A stretch of DNA of 64,000 nucleotides. Source: Okamejei kenojei. Taxonomy: Eukaryota. A program made the position numbers and the translations under genes. A model generated the notes under the pieces. That model was not told the DNA's origin, made no database searches, and was given only the letters and a program-made list of their open reading frames with translations. Below are positions 1,608 through 40,600 of this stretch, piece after piece. The stretch covers positions 17,918,001-17,982,000 of the forward strand of contig CM069162.1 of the NCBI GenBank assembly GCA_035221665.1, written 5' to 3'. Numbering within the stretch: position 1 is the first letter of the stretch; each line of letters opens with the position of its first letter.

Positions 1608-4600
1608 CTGCAAGAAAACAAAAATTATATAAATAGTTTAGACATAAATGTTCTCAACTGAAAATTATAATTACATACATGATAAAAAAATTACATTCTT
1701 TCCCACGACTTTGTAATAAATAAATTGTACTACTTTTACATGGCAACCACAAAATTCAACAAAGCCCCAGATAATCGGTTTTAAATGTGCTAAACTGTAG
1801 AGACAAGCAGGAATAAGCCTGACACTAGGTCATCCAACAAAGTACAAACGGAAAATGTCAATAAATTCATAAATCGCATATTCCTCCCTTGCTTCTTGGA
1901 AGACCCCGATGTAGATTTCATCAAGTTCAGGGGATTGGTACACCTTAATAACTAGTGCATCAATAACTTACATTTCCACTCTCCCAATACACATGTGTTC
2001 CAAACCTTCCCCCTCCTCAACCTTTCGCATCCTTCACTCTCCTCAACTCCCCCCCGTGAAATACTCATTCCGGACAGCACACATTTCCCCCGACTCCAGA
2101 GCCCTTTGGACTCCTGAGGAAACCCTCTCTTTTCCTACCTACTCTTGCTTTGAATATGCATAATAGGTTTTGTAATTCTATTTAATTCTGTTAGGAAAGG
2201 TAATTTCATGTACTCTTTTTGCCCTCTTGCCAACTTTCTTAAGTTCTCCTCTGTATCCTTTACAAACCTCAAAGGACTCACTTGATACACTATTTCCTAT
2301 ATCTGACATCCGGTTCTATCTTCTTTCAAAATCAAACTCCCGATTTCCTTTCTTAATTCCTTCTTCAAGTTTCCTGATCTTGTCATCTTTGCTTCTTGTC
2401 CTTACAGAGATAAGCCGATTCCAAAGAAGCTCATTCAAGAAACCTACCTCTCGAATATTGGCATCGCACACTCGAATAATGTTCAGGAACGTGGGCATGA
2501 CTTGAGGCAGGAACTGGACGCACTTTAAGCCCAAAGACTTGAAGATAAACGTGACAGCCTGAACGACCATTGTGTGGTGGTTTGAGAGAGAGGTGTCTCG
2601 CAAGATGCGCATCAGGGTCACTACGGCAACAGCCGGGTAAAACTCATCCAATGGTAAATTCCCCATGTTCACCAGCATTTCACTCGTGCTGTAATCGGCT
2701 GCAATCAAAATAAACATAAAAAATGTAAATAGAGAAACGTTTGAATATTAATAATTGCAGTGCAACAGATCCACTGGATCAAAACTGTTTCTGATTTTAT
2801 TATGTAGTGCCTTCTTGAGGTTTGTTTAAGGTATACAGTAGTACAACACAGAAACAGGCTAAACTCCCTCAACGTATTTTACTTGGTTGGAGGGGTCTAC
2901 ATTTTACACTCCCTTCTCCTAAATTGCAGAGCATCCTAACAGAGAATTAAATAAATACTTTGAAACAGTCATGATCAATCATATTTAGAGTTCCTTCGTG
3001 AAACAGCAGGAAATACCAATTACTTAGAAAATACTTTGTTGAAAATGTGGCTTTGCGCTCAGTCCATAAATCTTCACACAGCGAGACTTTGAATTCATTC
3101 AACAAAATGCATGCATTATCTTGACACAATGCGTTAGATGGAGATGTCTTCGTGTTAATAATCCATTCAGCTGTAACCAGTGCCCAATATCATTTCATTT
3201 TATTGCAGAAGGTCACACTTATTTCCTGAAGTACTTTTAAATGAAGAAACTAAAAGGTACAATCAATCTTTGCAAAGTAGGATAAGGTCAGTCTGCATTA
3301 TACCCAGTTGTGCAGAGCTACTTACTCCATAAATTATTTTTATCATCATAAAATAAAGCTGCAATGTTAGTTGCCTTCTTTTGAACTCTCCCCCAATTAA
3401 ATGCTATCACAATAATTTGTTATTCTACCATTTTGATTAGTCTTCATACCCCATTAATTATTTGCAACAAGGTGACTGCCCACTTTACAAGGCATCCTGA
3501 TGTATCAATCAATTCTCACAAACAATGTTTATATATTGATTTTAGGCATAAAAATAAAGACATCCTAATGTTGTAGTTCACACTAGCTTGCAGACATATT
3601 TGGAAAGGAGGGAAAAACATTGACTTGAAAATGTTTAACTCACCGCTTACTATAATTGAGACTTAAGTTTAGAAAGTGTACCCAATTATATTTGTGTTTC
3701 ACTTAAAAATAATGAACAGAACCTTCAAACAGAGTATCGCTGAAACTGAGAATGATCCGATCATGATTCCTGCCTATCAAACAAGTCACTCCACTACCAT
3801 GTAGTAACAAATACACTCAATCAGATCAGGCATAATGATTTCTAAATGCAATTGATATTTGATTAAAATATGGATTACATTTCTGGAATATGTTGCAGAT
3901 TGTATTATATGTATGAACAGCTAGCTCAGGTCCCTGTGCATGATACTACTTCGTGCTTTAGTGCCTCCTGCTATACATTAGTGAATTTTTGTGCTGAACA
4001 GTGTCCTCTCAGTGTCAAATAATCTGCAGCTGTTGAAGCTTACACAACATGACTGTTTTAGTGAGACACATGAGATCTATAACGCCTGTAAAGCTGCATT
4101 TTACAATAAGATGCAAAGGTGGATTTGGGGCATGGATTGATAGATGGGATTGAGATATTATAACCATGACAGAAATATAGATAACAGAGGGGCAGGACTG
4201 GCAGCTCAAATGTCCCAGGATACAGATGCTACAGGTTTCAATTTAATTTATTGCCACGTGTGCTGAGGTACAGTGAAAAGCTTTTGTTGCGTGCAGGATG
4301 CACATGCAGGATATAGAGCAAACAAGGAGTGAAATTGTGTTTGTGATTAAAGGAGAACGTCACGGCAGTACTTCAGGAGATATCCTTTGGGATTCATCCA
4401 GTAAGGCTGGATGATTCATTAAAGGGTGCAATAAGAAGTGGATGATCAATTGGATGTGATTGTATTATAGGTCCCCAAATAGTCAGCAGGAATGAGAGGA
4501 ACAAATATATAGGGAGTTTGCAGGTAGCTGTATAGTTAATGAGGTTGTAGTGCAATTTCAACTTCACTCATATCGACTGTCTTACATACTTGTGGAAGTG

Positions 4601-7600
4601 ACAAAGGTGATTGATGAGGGCAGGGCAGTGGATGTTATGTACACAGACTTCAGTAAAGCATCTGGCAAGGTTCGTCATGGTAGGATGATCCAGAAGATTA
4701 AAAAGCATGAGATCTACAGTGACTTGGTAGCTTGGATTCAGATCTGGTTTGCCCTTAAAAAAGGTAGTGTGGTACTGTGGAAGGTTATTCTGGCTAGAGA
4801 TATGTGACCAGTGGTGTTCCCCAGGGATCAGTGTTAGGACCTCTGTTGTTTGCGAACATGTAAATGGATCACTTACTTACTTTGCTGATGGCACAAACAT
4901 CAGTGGACTTGCAGACAGTAAAGCCGACGGTCAAAGAGTACAGAACAATCACAGATGTGGGTGGAGAAATGGAAAATGGAGTTTAATCGGGACAAGTGTG
5001 ATGTGTTGTACTTTGGGAAGTCAAATATATAGGGAACATATAAAGTTAATGGCAGAACCCATATACAGAGGGATCTTGGGAACCAAATCCATACTCACAA
5101 AAATAGCAATGGATCATGTGCAGGCAGAAGGGGTCAGTTTAATTTGGCATGATGTTTAGCACAGATATTGTGGGCCTTAGGGCCTGGCTCTGTCCTGTGC
5201 CACAATGTGTTCCATGTTCTTATTGCCCAGGTGATCATGTTATTTTATGTAGCATTTCATACACGAGTGTCATCAGGGTCGAATGGGCCAGCAGAGGGTG
5301 TCGAAGGTCGGACAGGCCCACAGTGAATGAAGAGAGACCTGGCGGACTAAATGGAATACTTTTAACTTTGTCGACGCCCCAAATGTGGCGACTCTTTGCA
5401 TACTTGTGTACGCAAAACAAAGAATCGCAGTGTGACATGCCGCATGTGATAATAAAGTCTCATTCATTGATTCCTTGCATATCAAAGATAAGCATGTAAG
5501 ATAAGATCAGTGTTTTGGTTGGTTCAAAATATTACTTTCGATTTCTTGTCAAAAGGAAATACAATATCAAAAATAAAGGCTAGAAGCAATTACATTAGTG
5601 TTCATACATTTCTCAAGTTACTGCCAATGCAACTGATCCTTAATGCGAAACACATTCATACCTGGGGGTGGAAGATGGCAACCTTCACGTGGTCTGCCCT
5701 GTTACGACAAATGCAATCAACCCGGCGTGCACAATCAAATAAAATCAAATAGAACAAGTCGTCCTACAACTTTAGACTGTGCACTCCATACGCAAGAAGA
5801 AGATTCATACCTGAATCCTGATTCGATTTAGACTCTGATAGACTGACAGCAGAAGCATCTCGGGACTGGTCAATCATCCCAATATTAACCTTGTGCTTGT
5901 ATGGATCCAAGGCACCCAACAGCCCCAAGACACGGATTGCCTACGAAAAATAGCAAAATATTGTTAAATATTTTGCACCTTTCTTAAAGAAAAAACATAT
6001 TTAATTAGCAGCTATTGAAATAAACTCATCATAATTCATAGATTTCTTGTATAATTATTTTCTTTATGCAATTTATGCAACCATTTGCTATAGGTTTTAA
6101 ATTTCCCTTTGCATTAAGATAGAGCAATATTTGCAAATGAATTTGCAAATTAATTTCAAGGTATGCTTACAACTCGGCTTGTTCTCGCTAGAATTTAGAA
6201 GATTGTGGGGGGATCTTATAGAAACTTACAAAATTCTTAAGGGGTTGGACAGGCTACATGCCGGAAGATTGTTCCCGATGTTGGGGAGGTCCAGAACAAG
6301 GGGTCACAGTTTAAGGATAAGGGGGAATTCCTTTAGGACCGAGATGAGGAAAACATTTTTCACACAGAGTGGTGAGTCTCTGGAATTCTCTGCCACAGAA
6401 GGTAGTTGAGGCCAGTTCATTGGCTATATTTAAGAGGGAGTTAGATGTGGCCCTTGTGGCTAAAGGGATCAGGGGGTATGGAGAGAAGGCAGGTACAGGA
6501 TACTGAGTTGAATGATCAGCCATGATCATATTGAATGGCGGTGCAGGCTCGAAGGGCCGAATGGCCTACTGCTGCACCTATTTTCTATGTTTCTATGTTC
6601 CTATGTAACTCTGCAATCTGTCTGGAGGGTGTTTATCGCAAAGATACCTCCATTTTGCTTGTGTTGTCAGCACAAGAAAATAGGAGCAGACGTTGGCCCA
6701 TCAGGCTCATCATGTCTGCCCCACCATCCACTATGATCAAAGCTGATCAATGCCAGCCTCATCTCCTGTGCCATATCTCCATAACCCTGAATTGCAGAGA
6801 CAAGGGTAAAGACTTCCCGAGATTCACTACATGTATCAATTTTAAATGACCAGCTCCTTATTTTGTTGTTATGTCCCCTTGGGGACTCTCCCACTGGTGG
6901 AAACATCCAAACATCGACCCTATCAAGCCCCATAAGAATCCTACATGTTTGAATATGGATGTATTTTTGCCCGGAATAGGATGATTTCCATTGGCTGACC
7001 TGGAGTAACACATGCATAGACTAAGATGCCATTTTCATGTCTTGGTAAGTATCACCCTTACCCTTTCTGACAGACAGAACAGGAGACCTTGCTGTGGGCC
7101 CTGAAACATTTTTGGTTCAGTATATACTCCCAATGTCATATATGTTGCAAGAGTAGAGTTACCACAAAAAGTTCCCCTAAATCGTGAAGTAAACTGGAAC
7201 TTCAACAAGATCTTAATGAATGGGTAGGTACAGGTTGTATTTCGGCTCAACTGGGGGTCGTCTCATCATCAAAATTTCTGTGACTGCTCGCTGTTTAGGT
7301 TTCAGGATGAAAAATGATGACTTTGCTCTGTCATTTTCCAGCAGCAGATGTGTTGCGCACAGATAGCCTGGAGCTCAGTTGTGCTGTTTTGTCTGCGAAG
7401 AAGCAGAAATGTTTGATCTTGCCTGTGCCTTTAAGGCCACATTTTCAATACTCCATACAGGTTTTTACAGTCACTTGTTAATGAATGAGGTGAGAGATTT
7501 TGTGGCAGCATGAAAAATCACTGAACTCATTTTAAATCTCCAAATACAGTGTTTCCAATATATATATATGTTAAAGCCTTGGAATGAATTTGTATTTGGT

Positions 7601-13600: not shown

Positions 13601-16600
13601 GATACTTGTCTTAAAAACACAGCAAAACAGTTTTAGTTTAGTTTAAGATAGACACAAAATGCTGGAGTAACTCAACGGGTCAGGCAGCACCTCTGGAGAA
13701 AAGGAATAGTTGACGTTTTGGGTCGAGACCATTCTTCAGACTGAGACGGAGACAGAGTTTAGTTTAGCTTATTATTGTCACATGTACTGAGGTACAGTAA
13801 AAAGCTTTTTGTACTTTCACTAATTAGCAAGACATTTTACAATTACAAGAACATTACTTGAAAAGGTATTGGTGACTTATTTAACATTGAAGATTAAATG
13901 TAACTAAAAACCTGAAACATCCTGTCTGTTTACCAGTAATAAATAGAAGTTAAATATGCAAAGCAGGATGTTAAGAATCCTGGGCCATTGTGAGAAGGTT
14001 AAGAACTACAACAAGATTATACTGGACCTCTGCCCCCATTGTGAATTTCTGCCCAAATCTCCTCACAGCTGAATATTTGAGGACCAAATGCAAAGCTTCC
14101 CAGACTCCAGGAATGCTCAGAGGCTGCAAATTGAGGAAGCTCTTCCTGCAAAACATTCCTGACACCTTTGCTAGCTGGAAAAACGACAAACACCAGCTTT
14201 GCCAGCTGCAAAGGTTCATACACTTTGGGCAGGTTCATACACTTAGAATGACACAGAAAGAGGCTATTTATCCACCAAATCCATGTTAGCTTCCAAGCCG
14301 TTAAATACAGAGGGACTAAATAACAGCGATCAATCAACCAAACAGCTGAATAATAAAATATTTTTTTGAAACGGCTGTCATCTCCCCTCTAATTTGAAGT
14401 ACGGCACGGTGGCGCAGCGGTAGAGTTGCTGCCTTGCAGCGCTGAAGATCTGAGTTTGATCCCGACTACAGGCGCTGTCTGTACTTAGTTACACGCTCCC
14501 CCCGTGGGTTTTCTCTGAGATCTTCAGTTTCCTCCAACACTCCAAAGACATCCACATTTGTAGGTTAATTGGCTTGGTATAAATGTAAATTGTCCCTTGT
14601 TTGTGTAGGATAGTGTTCATGTGCAGGGATTGCTGGTCGGTGCGAACTCGCTGATCCTTCTACCAATTATGCTAAATCTACGCAACTTGGTTTTTACCCT
14701 TCTGGTTGGAGAAATAGGTTTGTCTGCACCTCTGATAATTTAAAACATCCCAATTAAGTCTCCCCTGCGCTCCTCTGTCCCAAAGCAAGCAACTCAAAGT
14801 TTATCATATCTCTTTCCAAATCCCTCGGAGGGGAGACGAGGAAAAGATATTCTGGTCAGAGGGTGGCAGAGATCTGGAATTCATCCTAAAAGTATGGCTG
14901 CAGCAGAAAACGTTATCACTTTTAGAAAATACTTAAGATGTTCCTATGATCTACTGTGAACCTGATGCTAGAAAATGGCAATTACAGTAGGTTGGGTATC
15001 GTTAAATAGAGACACACTGATGAAACACTGTGTGTTTCTGTGTCATGTTTTCTATGAGTCTATCCTCCTGCAGTCTAATGCTTTGCTACTCGACTGTGTA
15101 TCCAGTATTTCTAGCTGCAATTTTTATTTTATCTACCTACTACATTTGTCTAAATCAATATACAAAAAGCAAGGTATTGCCTTTCATTCATAAAAACATC
15201 CATCACCCTTTTGCTTTCTGTCACTGAGCCAACTTTGAATACAAGCTGGTATTTAACATTAAACTGAAATGAAATAATTAAAACAGAAACTTCCCCTTTG
15301 CCTCGGAACTTGCTGCCAAATACCCCCCACTAAAATCAATGGGGTTTCAGATCTCATGCCAAGTTAGAATGAGCAGAGGATCCCACATAAAATGAAGCAT
15401 AAATGCACAGAATTTAACCAAGATTCAGGTCCACTGCTGAACTCTGGATGAGAAGGCCTGGATGGCTAACTGGTCAGAAAAATAAAACTGCATGAAACCC
15501 AAGGAAACAAATGATATTTTTATAACCTGAGATGTCTTTCGTTTGCGATTTATGGGATCTATTTTGAGCCTTTTGCTAATTTTGTTTAGATTAGATTAGA
15601 GATGCAGCGGGGTGGAAGATTGCAACCTTCACGTGGTCCGCCCTGTTTCGACGTGCACAAACGGAAGATCAAATAGAACAGGTTGCCCAACAACTTTAGG
15701 CTGTGCACGCCACACGAAAGAAGAAGAAAGATACAGCGTGGAAACAGGCCATTTGGCCCACCGAGTCCGTGTCGACATGGGTATGCAAATGGATCAAGTA
15801 TCAGCAGGGTAATGAACAGTGAATAAAGCTGCAGAGTATGAGTAGGATTTCAAAAGGGCTGATCAGATGGACAGAAAAGTGGGAAGTGGAATTCCATCCT
15901 GAAAACATTTTGGGAAGAACAAAGAAGTCAAGAACAAGGTGGCAATATCGCGAGAAGTGATGAAGAAACAGGCAAATGGGACAGACAGACAAGGTGGTTC
16001 AGAAAGTAATAAAGGACCTCTTTCCGTGAAAAAAATATTAATCATCATGCTGAAAATGTCACGTCCTGAGACATTAAATCCATTTCCACCACAGAGGGTC
16101 TCTGAGCATTTTCTGATTTAATAACAATTACTTTCCTTTATTACCCAATATAAGGATTAGATTATGCTGCAAAAATGCCACATAGAACTGGAGTAACACA
16201 GCAGGTCAGGGCAGCATCGATAGAGAAGAAGGAACAAGTCCCGACCGAAATACCACTTCTCCATGTTCTCCACAGATGTTGCCTGACCTGCAGAGTTACT
16301 CCAGCATTTGGTGTCTTTTTTTGTAAGTCAGCAATGGGATTTCCCTGAAGAAGGTTCCCGATCCAAAACATCACCTGTCCTTTTCATCAGGAAATGCTGA
16401 GTTACTTCAGCACTTTGTATCTATCTTCTGCAGTTCCCAGTTTCTTCGAGATTATGCTAGGACTTTGCAAAGTAATAGATACGCTATAGCCTAGTTGCTA
16501 TGTCAAGTTTTTTCTCTCGATATTTCAAGGAAGGAAGAGATTGAATGAAAGGGAATAGAGACGATTTAATGATGATAAAAAGGAACTGTAGATGCTGGAA

Positions 16601-37600: not shown

Positions 37601-40600
37601 ATGACTGTATATTTTTGATTTTGCAAAAATAAGTCATTAGGAATTGTTGATCTGATGACAAACACTCACTTTCTACAAAGTGGCAGTGGTAACAGTAGCT
37701 CAACCTACAAAAAAACTCTTACAAAGCACATGAAAACATTTCAGAATAAATATCCTCTCTTTCTAGCAGTACATTCTGTATTACATCACAAATCTAACCA
37801 GTAGGTCAAGACCACACAATGGATATATATTTTTGGTTAATTACAATAAATCCTGAACATACCTCTCCCTCCATGCTGCTTATACGAATCAGTTCATTTA
37901 GAATAAGCAAAGCCCCATGTATGCGATCATCACGATTCAAGCCTTTTTCTTTAGCCAGGGCCTCGTCAAATCCCTTCTCAGCCTCCTCAAAGGTTTGCTA
38001 GATACAAAACATCAAAACTTGTTTAAAAACCAACGCATCTTCAGGTTTTAAACAGCGAGCAACATTAATAGAATAAAAGTGAATTTTCACTTTACGATCA
38101 AATAAATAAGTGCTATTTTATTTTAGATCTATGCAAAATTACTAGATCATTACTATCAAAACCTAAAGTCTCCAATTGATGCTGGAATGGTGACATCAGA
38201 CATTCCCAAAGCCTGTACCATATGCATTGGAAAACTTCAGCAGCTGAGTAAAGATTTCCAGATCCGACTTTCAATCGCTTAAAGATGATTTCACATGGAG
38301 TTGAAAAAAATACTTAAAAAGAGGCAGGCATCCCTGTCTCCAACATAATTAGGGCTAAATTTTAGCATCCTTTTCAATGAACAATTGATAGCTTACTGCA
38401 ATCATCAAAGTTACTGGTTTGTACGTTGTTACGACTCACTGAGAAAACATACCGAGCCTTCAACAATTGGTTGTGACGAAGAAAGATTCTTTCATCTTCG
38501 TACTTGCCTTGTACCACTGGGGCTTTTGCATTTCTTTGGTCTCCCTTTGAGTGGTGAGAATCAGACAAGCCCGTAAGGCAGCAACGGCACCTTCTCTTAT
38601 GGCCTGTTTGGAATCCCAGACGGCAAAGAATATATTGTCAAAGAAAGCCTGCACTTGCTGGAAGAAGAAAGTAGGTGCGCTGACTGCCAACTCCCGCAAG
38701 ATCAGAACCTAGAATTTAAAGAAAACAAAGTTTCTCGGTTACTCTTAAAAAGCTTAATGTGCAGCCGGTGCAAAAGATAATAGGTATGCTTCAGTTGTTT
38801 TTCCAAGAAATATAGAGGTGAGAGCATTACCTTGGAATAAGATATTTTATTCTTAGACAAATAATTTCACATTATTTCATTGGACACTTCATAAAAGTAA
38901 ATCTTGTTTCTTTATAAATGAAAAAAATGACAAAAAAAAATATCATGGTGCAGTTTAAAAACAGCTTGGGAATATTTGGAACAGTTAGGGCGCAATTTTG
39001 TAAAATGGAACACATTATTTGAAGAAATAAATAATTCCGTAATAACAATCTTCCCAACCACAGACTTATGTCTCTGAATTTTACTGTAGGAAGTACAAAC
39101 AAAATATGTGCTTTTCTGCTGCAAACCCATACTGTATAATTCTACTATTCATAGAAACATAGAAAATACATGCAGGAGTAGGCCATTCAGCCCTTCGAGC
39201 CAGCATCGCCATTCAGTATGATCATGGCTGATCATCCAAAATCAGTACCCCGTTCCTGCTTTCTCCCCATATCCCGTGATTCTGTTAGCCCCAAGAGATA
39301 TATCTAACTCTTGTTCCCTTGGATCATTCAAAATTCCTATGATCGATCTAAAGAAATTACATAAACAATCATTTTTTGCATTTATCCATGAGGTGAATTA
39401 ATCATCTCATCAAGCATAAGTTTCATTCAGGGAAATATGCAAAATTAGGCCATCTGAGTTGGTGAGCTTGCTAATCATAACACCATCATAGTTGATTCTA
39501 CAGAGGGAGGACAGGAGTGGAATGCTGACAAATAAAATCAATTAAGCTTTTTGGAGCCAGAATGTCACCAATCCCTTGGCATGATTAAGGTCATTCGATA
39601 ATTTCAGGATTGAACGCTTTCAAAGCCAAATATATACTATCTAAACTCAACCGTCAAGAATAATGTACATAAACAAGGTGTCCAGAAACTGTCAGAACCG
39701 ATAAAACAATATCGCAATTTACATCATTACTTCAGGAGAAAAGTAGGAAGTCTGGAGCTAAAAGAAATAAATCTTCAAAAGTAATAATTAATGCTTTAAA
39801 AAATTAGGCCAATGGGCATTACCCAACATTAGCATAGAGATGTTCATGACAAACTTAGCTCTCAAAGAGTATAATCTAAATACCAGACTCATGTGCATAA
39901 ACTAGGTTGCCATATGAGAAGATTTTTATTGTCTAAGGGGCCATCTTTTGAGGGGGCATTACATTGAAATTTGCATGTTCTAATGGGTTAAATGTTACAT
40001 GATTGGCTTTGGCTCTTTAAGAAACAGAATTTTCCTTGTGTTGTCCAACTTTTCTTGCTCAGTAAAAGTACTGAAAAATGTTTTCATTGTTTGCTTAAAA
40101 AAATGGAAATCTGTAATATAAACAGAGTGCCAGAAACATTCAGCAAGTTGGTCAATAGCTGAGTGGGCAAGTAACTGAGATCTATCTGAGATCTGAAATT
40201 AACTAAGACTGTACTAATCCTAGCTGTACTAAACCGACCAATGCAACCTTTGCAATCTCAGCCCACAGGGATCTCAGTTGACAGCGTCTCCGACTTACAG
40301 AAACTTTGGATCACGGGCAGTTCTCGAACCTCTCATGTGATCTGCAGAGTGTCTATACATTAAAAAGAATGGATATCCTGATCAGAATTTTAGTGATTTA
40401 GATTTTCTGTGGTCTGGCACTTGTCGGTTTCATAGAGTAGACACAAAATGCTGGAGTAACTCAGCGAGACGGGCAGCATCTCTGGAGAGAAGAAATGGGT
40501 GACGTTTCGGGTCCCTAGCGTGTCAGTCTAGAGAATTTCAAGTTATAATTAATTGTATGGGAAGCACTTGGATGTTTCTGTCTGTTTCTATATTAAAGCA

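Follow-up and report, generated by a model that had tools for sequence, protein, structure and literature searches.

Why does the mTOR gene of the skate Okamejei kenojei carry the same splice donor twice at the end of one exon, and which of the two is used? We analysed a 64,000-nt stretch of genomic DNA (hereafter, the window) in which a short retroposon and its target-site duplication (TSD) lie at the boundary of the 17th coding exon of MTOR. The locus is a natural duplicated-donor experiment: identical donors stand 149 nt apart in an essential gene, in an arrangement common to several species. Junction counts there could show how a vertebrate chooses when two donors are identical, and whether a recursive splice site can arise from a TSD.

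An antisense retroposon and a duplicated MTOR donor

MTOR exons were located with vertebrate mTOR proteins as tblastn queries, and across the window and 200 kb downstream this gave a map of 32 introns. The exon at 5940-5811 showed 100% identity over 43 residues to coelacanth mTOR. Its label as exon 18 in the initial annotation would be valid if, as in human MTOR, one non-coding first exon is present. The intron that follows is 3.1 kb long, and the retroposon sits antisense in it, 8 bases from the exon (Table 1).

Table 1. Positions of the features discussed, numbered along the window
Feature	Position	Strand	Basis or remark
MTOR 17th coding exon, 130 nt	5811..5940	-	tblastn and junction mapping; RNA contig joins 5811 to 2698
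Next MTOR exon, 251 nt, acceptor shared by both donors	2448..2698	-	joint 2698-5811 in RNA contig
TSD copy by the element tail, native donor 1	5803..5813	-	exon end 5811, intron +1 to +8; used in RNA run X8
Second TSD copy, donor 2, candidate recursive AG/GT site	5654..5664	-	exon end 5662; AG at 5663-5662 after pyrimidine run
Full-length 138-nt non-autonomous retroposon, (AAG)n tail	5665..5802	+ (antisense to MTOR)	family matches, fixed 5' end, TSDs
Premature stop TAG, read upon exon extension into the element	5764..5766	-	translation
Candidate 37-nt cryptic cassette exon	5662..5698	-	acceptor AG 5700-5699, ends at donor 2; stop at codon 914
Predicted minimal HDV-like ribozyme fold, 54 nt	5665..5718	+ (antisense to MTOR)	descriptor search; weak Rfam RF02682 match on sister copy L002
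Predicted fold stems	P1 5665-5671/5694-5700; P2 5674-5680/5712-5718; P3 5681-5683/5691-5693	+	descriptor
Predicted fold loop and putative catalytic C	L3 5684-5690; C at 5708	+	descriptor

An identical 11-mer was found at both ends of the element, with no third occurrence on either strand of the window. Read on the minus strand, both copies are CAG/GTATGAAT (the slash marks the exon end), which confirms the pair of identical donors, 149 nt apart, described in the initial annotation. An 11-nt repeat alone is a weak sign, the window holding 26 exact repeats of at least 11 nt at spacings of 50-400 nt. We regard this one as a true TSD because it exactly bounds a full-length member of a repeat family and because TSDs of similar length flank the other members.

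The 138-nt element matched all 40 scored candidates at 93-100% (from 2724 first-look candidates). At 29 other loci, one of which (L019) duplicates another (L003), the likeness has one common starting base and runs into (AAG)n at its end. TSDs of 10-15 nt flank the element at 26 of these 29 loci and are perfect at 13; the other three are without a convincing TSD, and the modal length is 11. Exact matches of the 5' 19-mer number 11,373, a lower bound on the size of the family (reversed control, 0), and 5'-truncated copies exist. The family is thus multicopy, with shared ends, a TSD of variable length, a simple-repeat 3' tail and truncated copies, the characters of a non-LTR retroposon of the target-primed type. 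The window copy departs from the family majority by 7 differences and other copies by 1-5, the latter having been chosen for likeness to the window copy.

Splicing from donor 1 joins 5940-5811 in frame to the exon that starts at 2698 and gives normal mTOR, as had been proposed. With donor 2 the exon gains 149 nt and the frame ends at codon 925; this stop lies 102 nt ahead of the 5662 junction, and many further junctions follow. Nonsense-mediated decay (NMD) usually applies where a premature stop precedes a junction by more than 50-55 nt, and the predicted product of donor 2 satisfies this rule, again as proposed.

Target-primed reverse transcription is an established mechanism. Here it would have been primed from the MTOR-sense strand, nicked between intron positions +8 and +9; this strand is assigned as the primer because the element tail adjoins the exon side. 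Because the primer strand is MTOR-sense, the exon and donor 1 remain one piece whatever the length of the TSD or the position of the second nick. The initial annotation had held that the TSD, by rebuilding the donor, let the insertion be tolerated. If insertion was target-primed, the primer strand stayed intact and holds the native donor, and the TSD only adds a competitor; we infer that the TSD created a rival donor and rescued nothing. The earlier interpretation is supported for the retroposon TSD, the duplicated donor and the NMD-type stop, and unsupported for the rescue of the donor.

A donor-like hexamer precedes 3 of the 11,373 copies, where 2.5-2.6 are expected by chance, and the other two copies so preceded are without a duplicated upstream CAG/GT. 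We rejected the idea that the family targets splice donors, since insertions at donor hexamers occur at the chance rate.

The insertion was also looked for in sequencing runs of other organisms, which are from relatives or are thin data, because none of those listed contains half of the sequence words. DNA contigs from three organisms (three studies; 3 of 6 such DNA runs examined) enter the element from both flanks, covering 5385-5700 and 5779-5949 in organism C, 5385-5690 and 5777-6050 in organism D, and 5116-5687 and 5781-6050 in organism E. These contigs are single-copy, reach 22-36 nt into the element and then stop, as a filled site predicts; only one of the six flank contigs satisfies the 31-letter bridging rule, and an empty-site joint, though unlikely, could lie among 119 joints beyond those listed. 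Intron letters differing from the window amount to 103 of 1839 (5.6%) in C, 51 of 1561 (3.3%) in D and 85 of 1821 (4.7%) in E. Because it is common to three relatives with introns 3-6% different, the insertion predates several splits. The comparison of related species, which the initial annotation had named as a check, finds the element present, and on its occurrence in three related organisms we rejected a recent polymorphic insertion. The probability that 11 bases survive intact under neutrality is 0.45-0.72 at 3-7% divergence. The perfect second TSD copy, whose donor 2 letters were read in the window copy only, shows no sign of selection, because 13 of the 29 other loci are also perfect and neutral survival is expected about half the time.

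The retroposon family and its predicted ribozyme head

A simple pattern search found no Pol III A or B boxes in the window copy, and Rfam returned no match on the window copy and no tRNA, 5S or SRP match on sister copy L002. A SINE with a tRNA, 5S or 7SL head was rejected on these grounds. The search for an autonomous LINE partner found none among the 29 loci, among 25 further-searched loci or by pattern, short copies having swamped the searches. Upstream of a match near 1500 in locus L101, a 5'-truncated family copy, lies a 446-aa reverse-transcriptase-like open frame, which we take to look CR1-like. This frame was rejected as the partner; just 1 of 25 loci has it ahead of a truncated copy, and we take it to belong to a host site.

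The 5' end of the element is predicted to form an HDV-like ribozyme fold. The fold starts at element nt 1 and was found in strict form in 19 of 51 copies, or in 32 of 51 when up to one mismatch was allowed in each of P1 and P2; the 51 copies leave out two loci that are duplicates and six whose 5' end could not be recognised. On the antisense strand it was found in 0 of the 51 copies, and in shuffled sequences in 0 of 200,000. The descriptor was written after the sequence had been seen. It describes a nested double pseudoknot (P1, P2, P3 and P1.1) with a P1 of about 7 bp running from the predicted cleavage site, and includes as parts the U.G pair of L3, the catalytic C and the constrained A in J4/2, features given in the accessible text of PMC3774820. 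The window copy conforms to it only if a single P2 mismatch, at 5677, is allowed. The best Rfam score, for RF02682 on L002 from element nt 1, was 14.4 bits (E 2.1), far below the gathering score of 44. Together, these results suggest a family head with an HDV-like fold, for which self-cleavage is predicted. The predicted ribozyme would not cut MTOR pre-mRNA, because its fold lies on the strand opposite to MTOR and this copy has the mismatch. If the ribozyme is active, a family of over 11,000 copies would supply a large amount of self-cleaving RNA in the genome, and would lead one to expect an antisense bias within introns.

In the available portions of four papers, 5' HDV-like ribozymes head ORF-less R2 SIDEs, NARTc/RIME and elements derived from RTE, Ingi and Vingi (PMC5786205, PMC6765202, PMC4035085, PMC3774820). 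Like the bipartite non-autonomous LINEs described there, the skate family has a fixed 5' end at the fold, no Pol III boxes found, a short repeat tail, TSDs and some 5'-truncated copies. It differs from them, as far as those portions go, in a fold of only 54 nt, in having almost no P4 and in reaching more than 11,000 copies in a vertebrate. By analogy, the element appears to behave like a bipartite non-autonomous LINE, for which an RTE, Ingi or Vingi origin would each be possible. The Rex3 tail, given in the available part of PMC6274825 as (GAA)2 followed by GATG repeats, was considered as a clade marker and rejected, since the skate family is without GATG repeats and (GAA)2 does not, on that text, fix a clade. 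A literature search returned no paper on this locus or family, a weak kind of absence with most subscription journals outside its reach; judged from that search alone, the ribozyme-headed family is apparently undescribed. On the combined splice phenomenon the search brought up nothing closer than general papers and papers on intron gain.

Several variants of the family were observed. A second copy lies in an MTOR intron at 15609-15726 (+), also antisense, with about 17 nt missing; it is unable to form the ribozyme fold because the 3' strand of P2 is among them. At locus L073, upstream of a match near 1500, the 3' 60 nt of the family stand on a different upstream sequence that has an L3-like heptamer; this may be a sister family headed by a different ribozyme. 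Contigs of the relatives have loose ends at window 5734 and 5744 that correspond to variants of the family differing in their middle segments, and a pattern drawn from one such variant gave 0 matches in this genome. Two changes private to the window copy, at 5704 and 5709, leave the MTOR strand slightly richer in U than the family majority ahead of the AG at 5700-5699, and are probably chance or CpG decay.

Two identical donors and their predicted use

Use of the donors was examined in RNA-type runs. In run X8, from a relative (organism B), one 2926-nt contig carries the joint 2698-5811 (CT..AC) at depth 8.5, with 1 other letter over 5811-5942. The normal splice form exists in organism B, which may or may not carry the insertion. 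The joint 5662-2698 is absent from the 8 joints listed for RNA-type runs, where rare forms are lost from contigs and NMD would conceal the product. No listed run is recorded as RNA; of 18 guessed to be RNA, five were examined and X8 alone was informative. The other four (X3, X4, X12 and X5, of which X3 and X4 are probably DNA) have no exon coverage, and their depth over the element comes from other family copies, as seen from majority letters at 5704, 5743, 5760 and 5776. Of the 84 proteins that a search with the read-through peptide retrieved, none has the new end that read-through would give, which is weak evidence.

Splice sites were scored with a small position weight matrix (PWM) built from the 32 MTOR introns, not with MaxEntScan. 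Both donors score 8.49, above 19 of the 32 real donors, and match the U1-complementary consensus at 9 of 11 positions. In the predicted fold, the mean unpaired value is 0.46 for donor 1 and 0.53 for donor 2, neither being clearly more open. The 149-nt spacer has a 5-mer score of -0.14, a value that exons also take and that is higher than in 29 of 30 intron starts; no silencing is evident, because the 5-mer content of the spacer is exon-like. In vitro, the downstream one of two strong duplicated donors often wins.

We favour a near-silent insertion, with a probability of about 0.6: nearly all splicing probably goes through the native donor, and the retroposon is most likely an inert passenger. 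Donor 2 would then yield low-level noise only, cleared by NMD. Exon definition should prefer the 130-nt exon to the 279-nt extended exon, which is longer than all 31 mapped internal exons. This reading is preferred because X8 shows the normal joint and the insertion persists through several splits, because the second TSD copy shows no sign of selection and the donor hexamer occurs at the chance rate, because the extended exon exceeds the 276-nt maximum, and, more weakly, because the read-through end is missing from the proteins searched. Counting against it are the donors themselves, which are equally strong by construction and neither clearly more open, the exon-like spacer and the frequent success of the downstream donor in vitro. 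The RNA support, moreover, is one contig from another organism, and contigs drop rare forms. A silent donor 2, the most likely case, would make the insertion an ordinary one.

Of the other readings, a leak is the best placed, and we consider it unlikely. More than 10% of transcripts would use donor 2, either for the 149-nt extension or for the 37-nt cassette, and would be destroyed by NMD, with the loss of mTOR dose tolerated and no regulation involved. The identical donor strength and exon-like spacer argue for it, as does a passable upstream acceptor: that of the cassette has a PWM score of 6.35, higher than that of the second-copy AG and than those of 7 of the 32 real acceptors, and the 57 nt scanned before it contain four branch-point-like motifs but no AG. 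Both products, with stops at codons 925 (extension) and 914 (cassette), have many junctions downstream. Persistence of the insertion in four organisms, with donor 2 unchanged in the window copy, is however easier to explain at nil cost, and among the joints listed only the normal one was seen, neither the extension nor the cassette.

Somewhat less probable still is recursive, or ratchet, removal, in which the element is excised as its own 149-nt intron and the regenerated pre-insertion donor is then spliced to 2698, giving normal mRNA and no harm. Donor 1 spliced to the second-copy AG restores the pre-insertion sequence letter for letter, and the intermediate would equal the empty site. The G-rich 5' end of the element becomes, on the MTOR strand, a pyrimidine run directly ahead of the second-copy CAG, and the AG/GT acceptor there is followed at once by the regenerated donor, as in a recursive site. 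Pyrimidines fill 14 of the 17 positions before this AG, equal to the best of the 32 real acceptors and in the top 2.1% of 4363 intronic YAGs. A 142-nt intron elsewhere in MTOR is a precedent for so short an excision, and the available part of PMC3443670 presents transposon insertion into AGGT as a known way to a precisely spliced intron. The acceptor is nevertheless weak. Its tract is C-rich with 5 T (at least 6 T in 31 of 32 real acceptors), its PWM score of 4.33 exceeds those of only 3 of the 32 and is equalled or bettered by 10.8% of 8828 intronic AGs, its AG-free zone is 19 nt, and it has no yUnAy branch motif, which is present for 26 of the 32. The AG at 5700-5699 outscores it, and direct splicing from donor 1 requires no such step. 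No intermediate was seen, though spliced contigs could not reveal one.

A three-way switch from the one insertion, in which a working recursive site excises the element as a 149-nt intron, transcripts are also diverted to NMD products and the arrangement is kept across related species, is doubtful to a greater degree. Least probable is the strong case of the initial annotation, in which donor 2 was adopted as a regulated NMD-coupled switch tuning mTOR levels: the duplicate donor and stop codon it needs are present and the insertion is old enough for co-option, but use of donor 2 was not seen in the one RNA contig of a relative, the second TSD copy bears no sign of selection and the event is at the chance rate.

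Known systems and other features of the gene

The kinds of event at this locus are already known. Antisense SINEs are exonised, and alternative 5' splice sites derived from transposable elements are coupled to NMD, Alu exons being an example. The MTOR locus shares with these an antisense element beside an exon, an internal cryptic acceptor and a premature stop upon inclusion. It differs in that donor 2 is the host's own duplicated donor rather than a mutation in the element, and in that inclusion is only a candidate. The vertebrate recursive splice sites described lie deep within very long introns and use an RS-exon. The MTOR site has in common with them a pyrimidine tract and an AG/GT that would regenerate a strong donor, whereas only 149 nt separate it from the donor, its intron is 3.1 kb long and its acceptor is weak.

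A further likeness is to intron gain by transposon insertion into an AG/GT proto-splice site, as set out in the available text of PMC3443670. In both cases the TSD puts AG/GT on both sides, with a donor upstream and an acceptor followed by a donor downstream, and precise excision restores the sequence. In MTOR, by contrast with the cases in that text, the AG/GT is an existing exon-intron boundary and not exonic, excision would be optional and recursive with a zero-length exon, and the AG is a candidate.

Three further features of the gene were observed. The donor of the 4th coding exon, at 38508 (-), maps as GC (AAG/GCAAGT), a GC-AG intron. Five or six MTOR exons (P0032 residues ~745-935) are present twice, about 78 kb apart and at near-equal spacing, on G000:C32 at about 17,804,800-17,819,000 (L043-L045) and 17,726,400-17,740,400 (L051-L053), either because part of the gene is duplicated in tandem or as an artefact of the assembly. 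In the same MTOR intron as the retroposon, window 4248-4294 is a short piece of another very high-copy repeat, with a summed contig depth of more than 1 million in runs X19 and X21.
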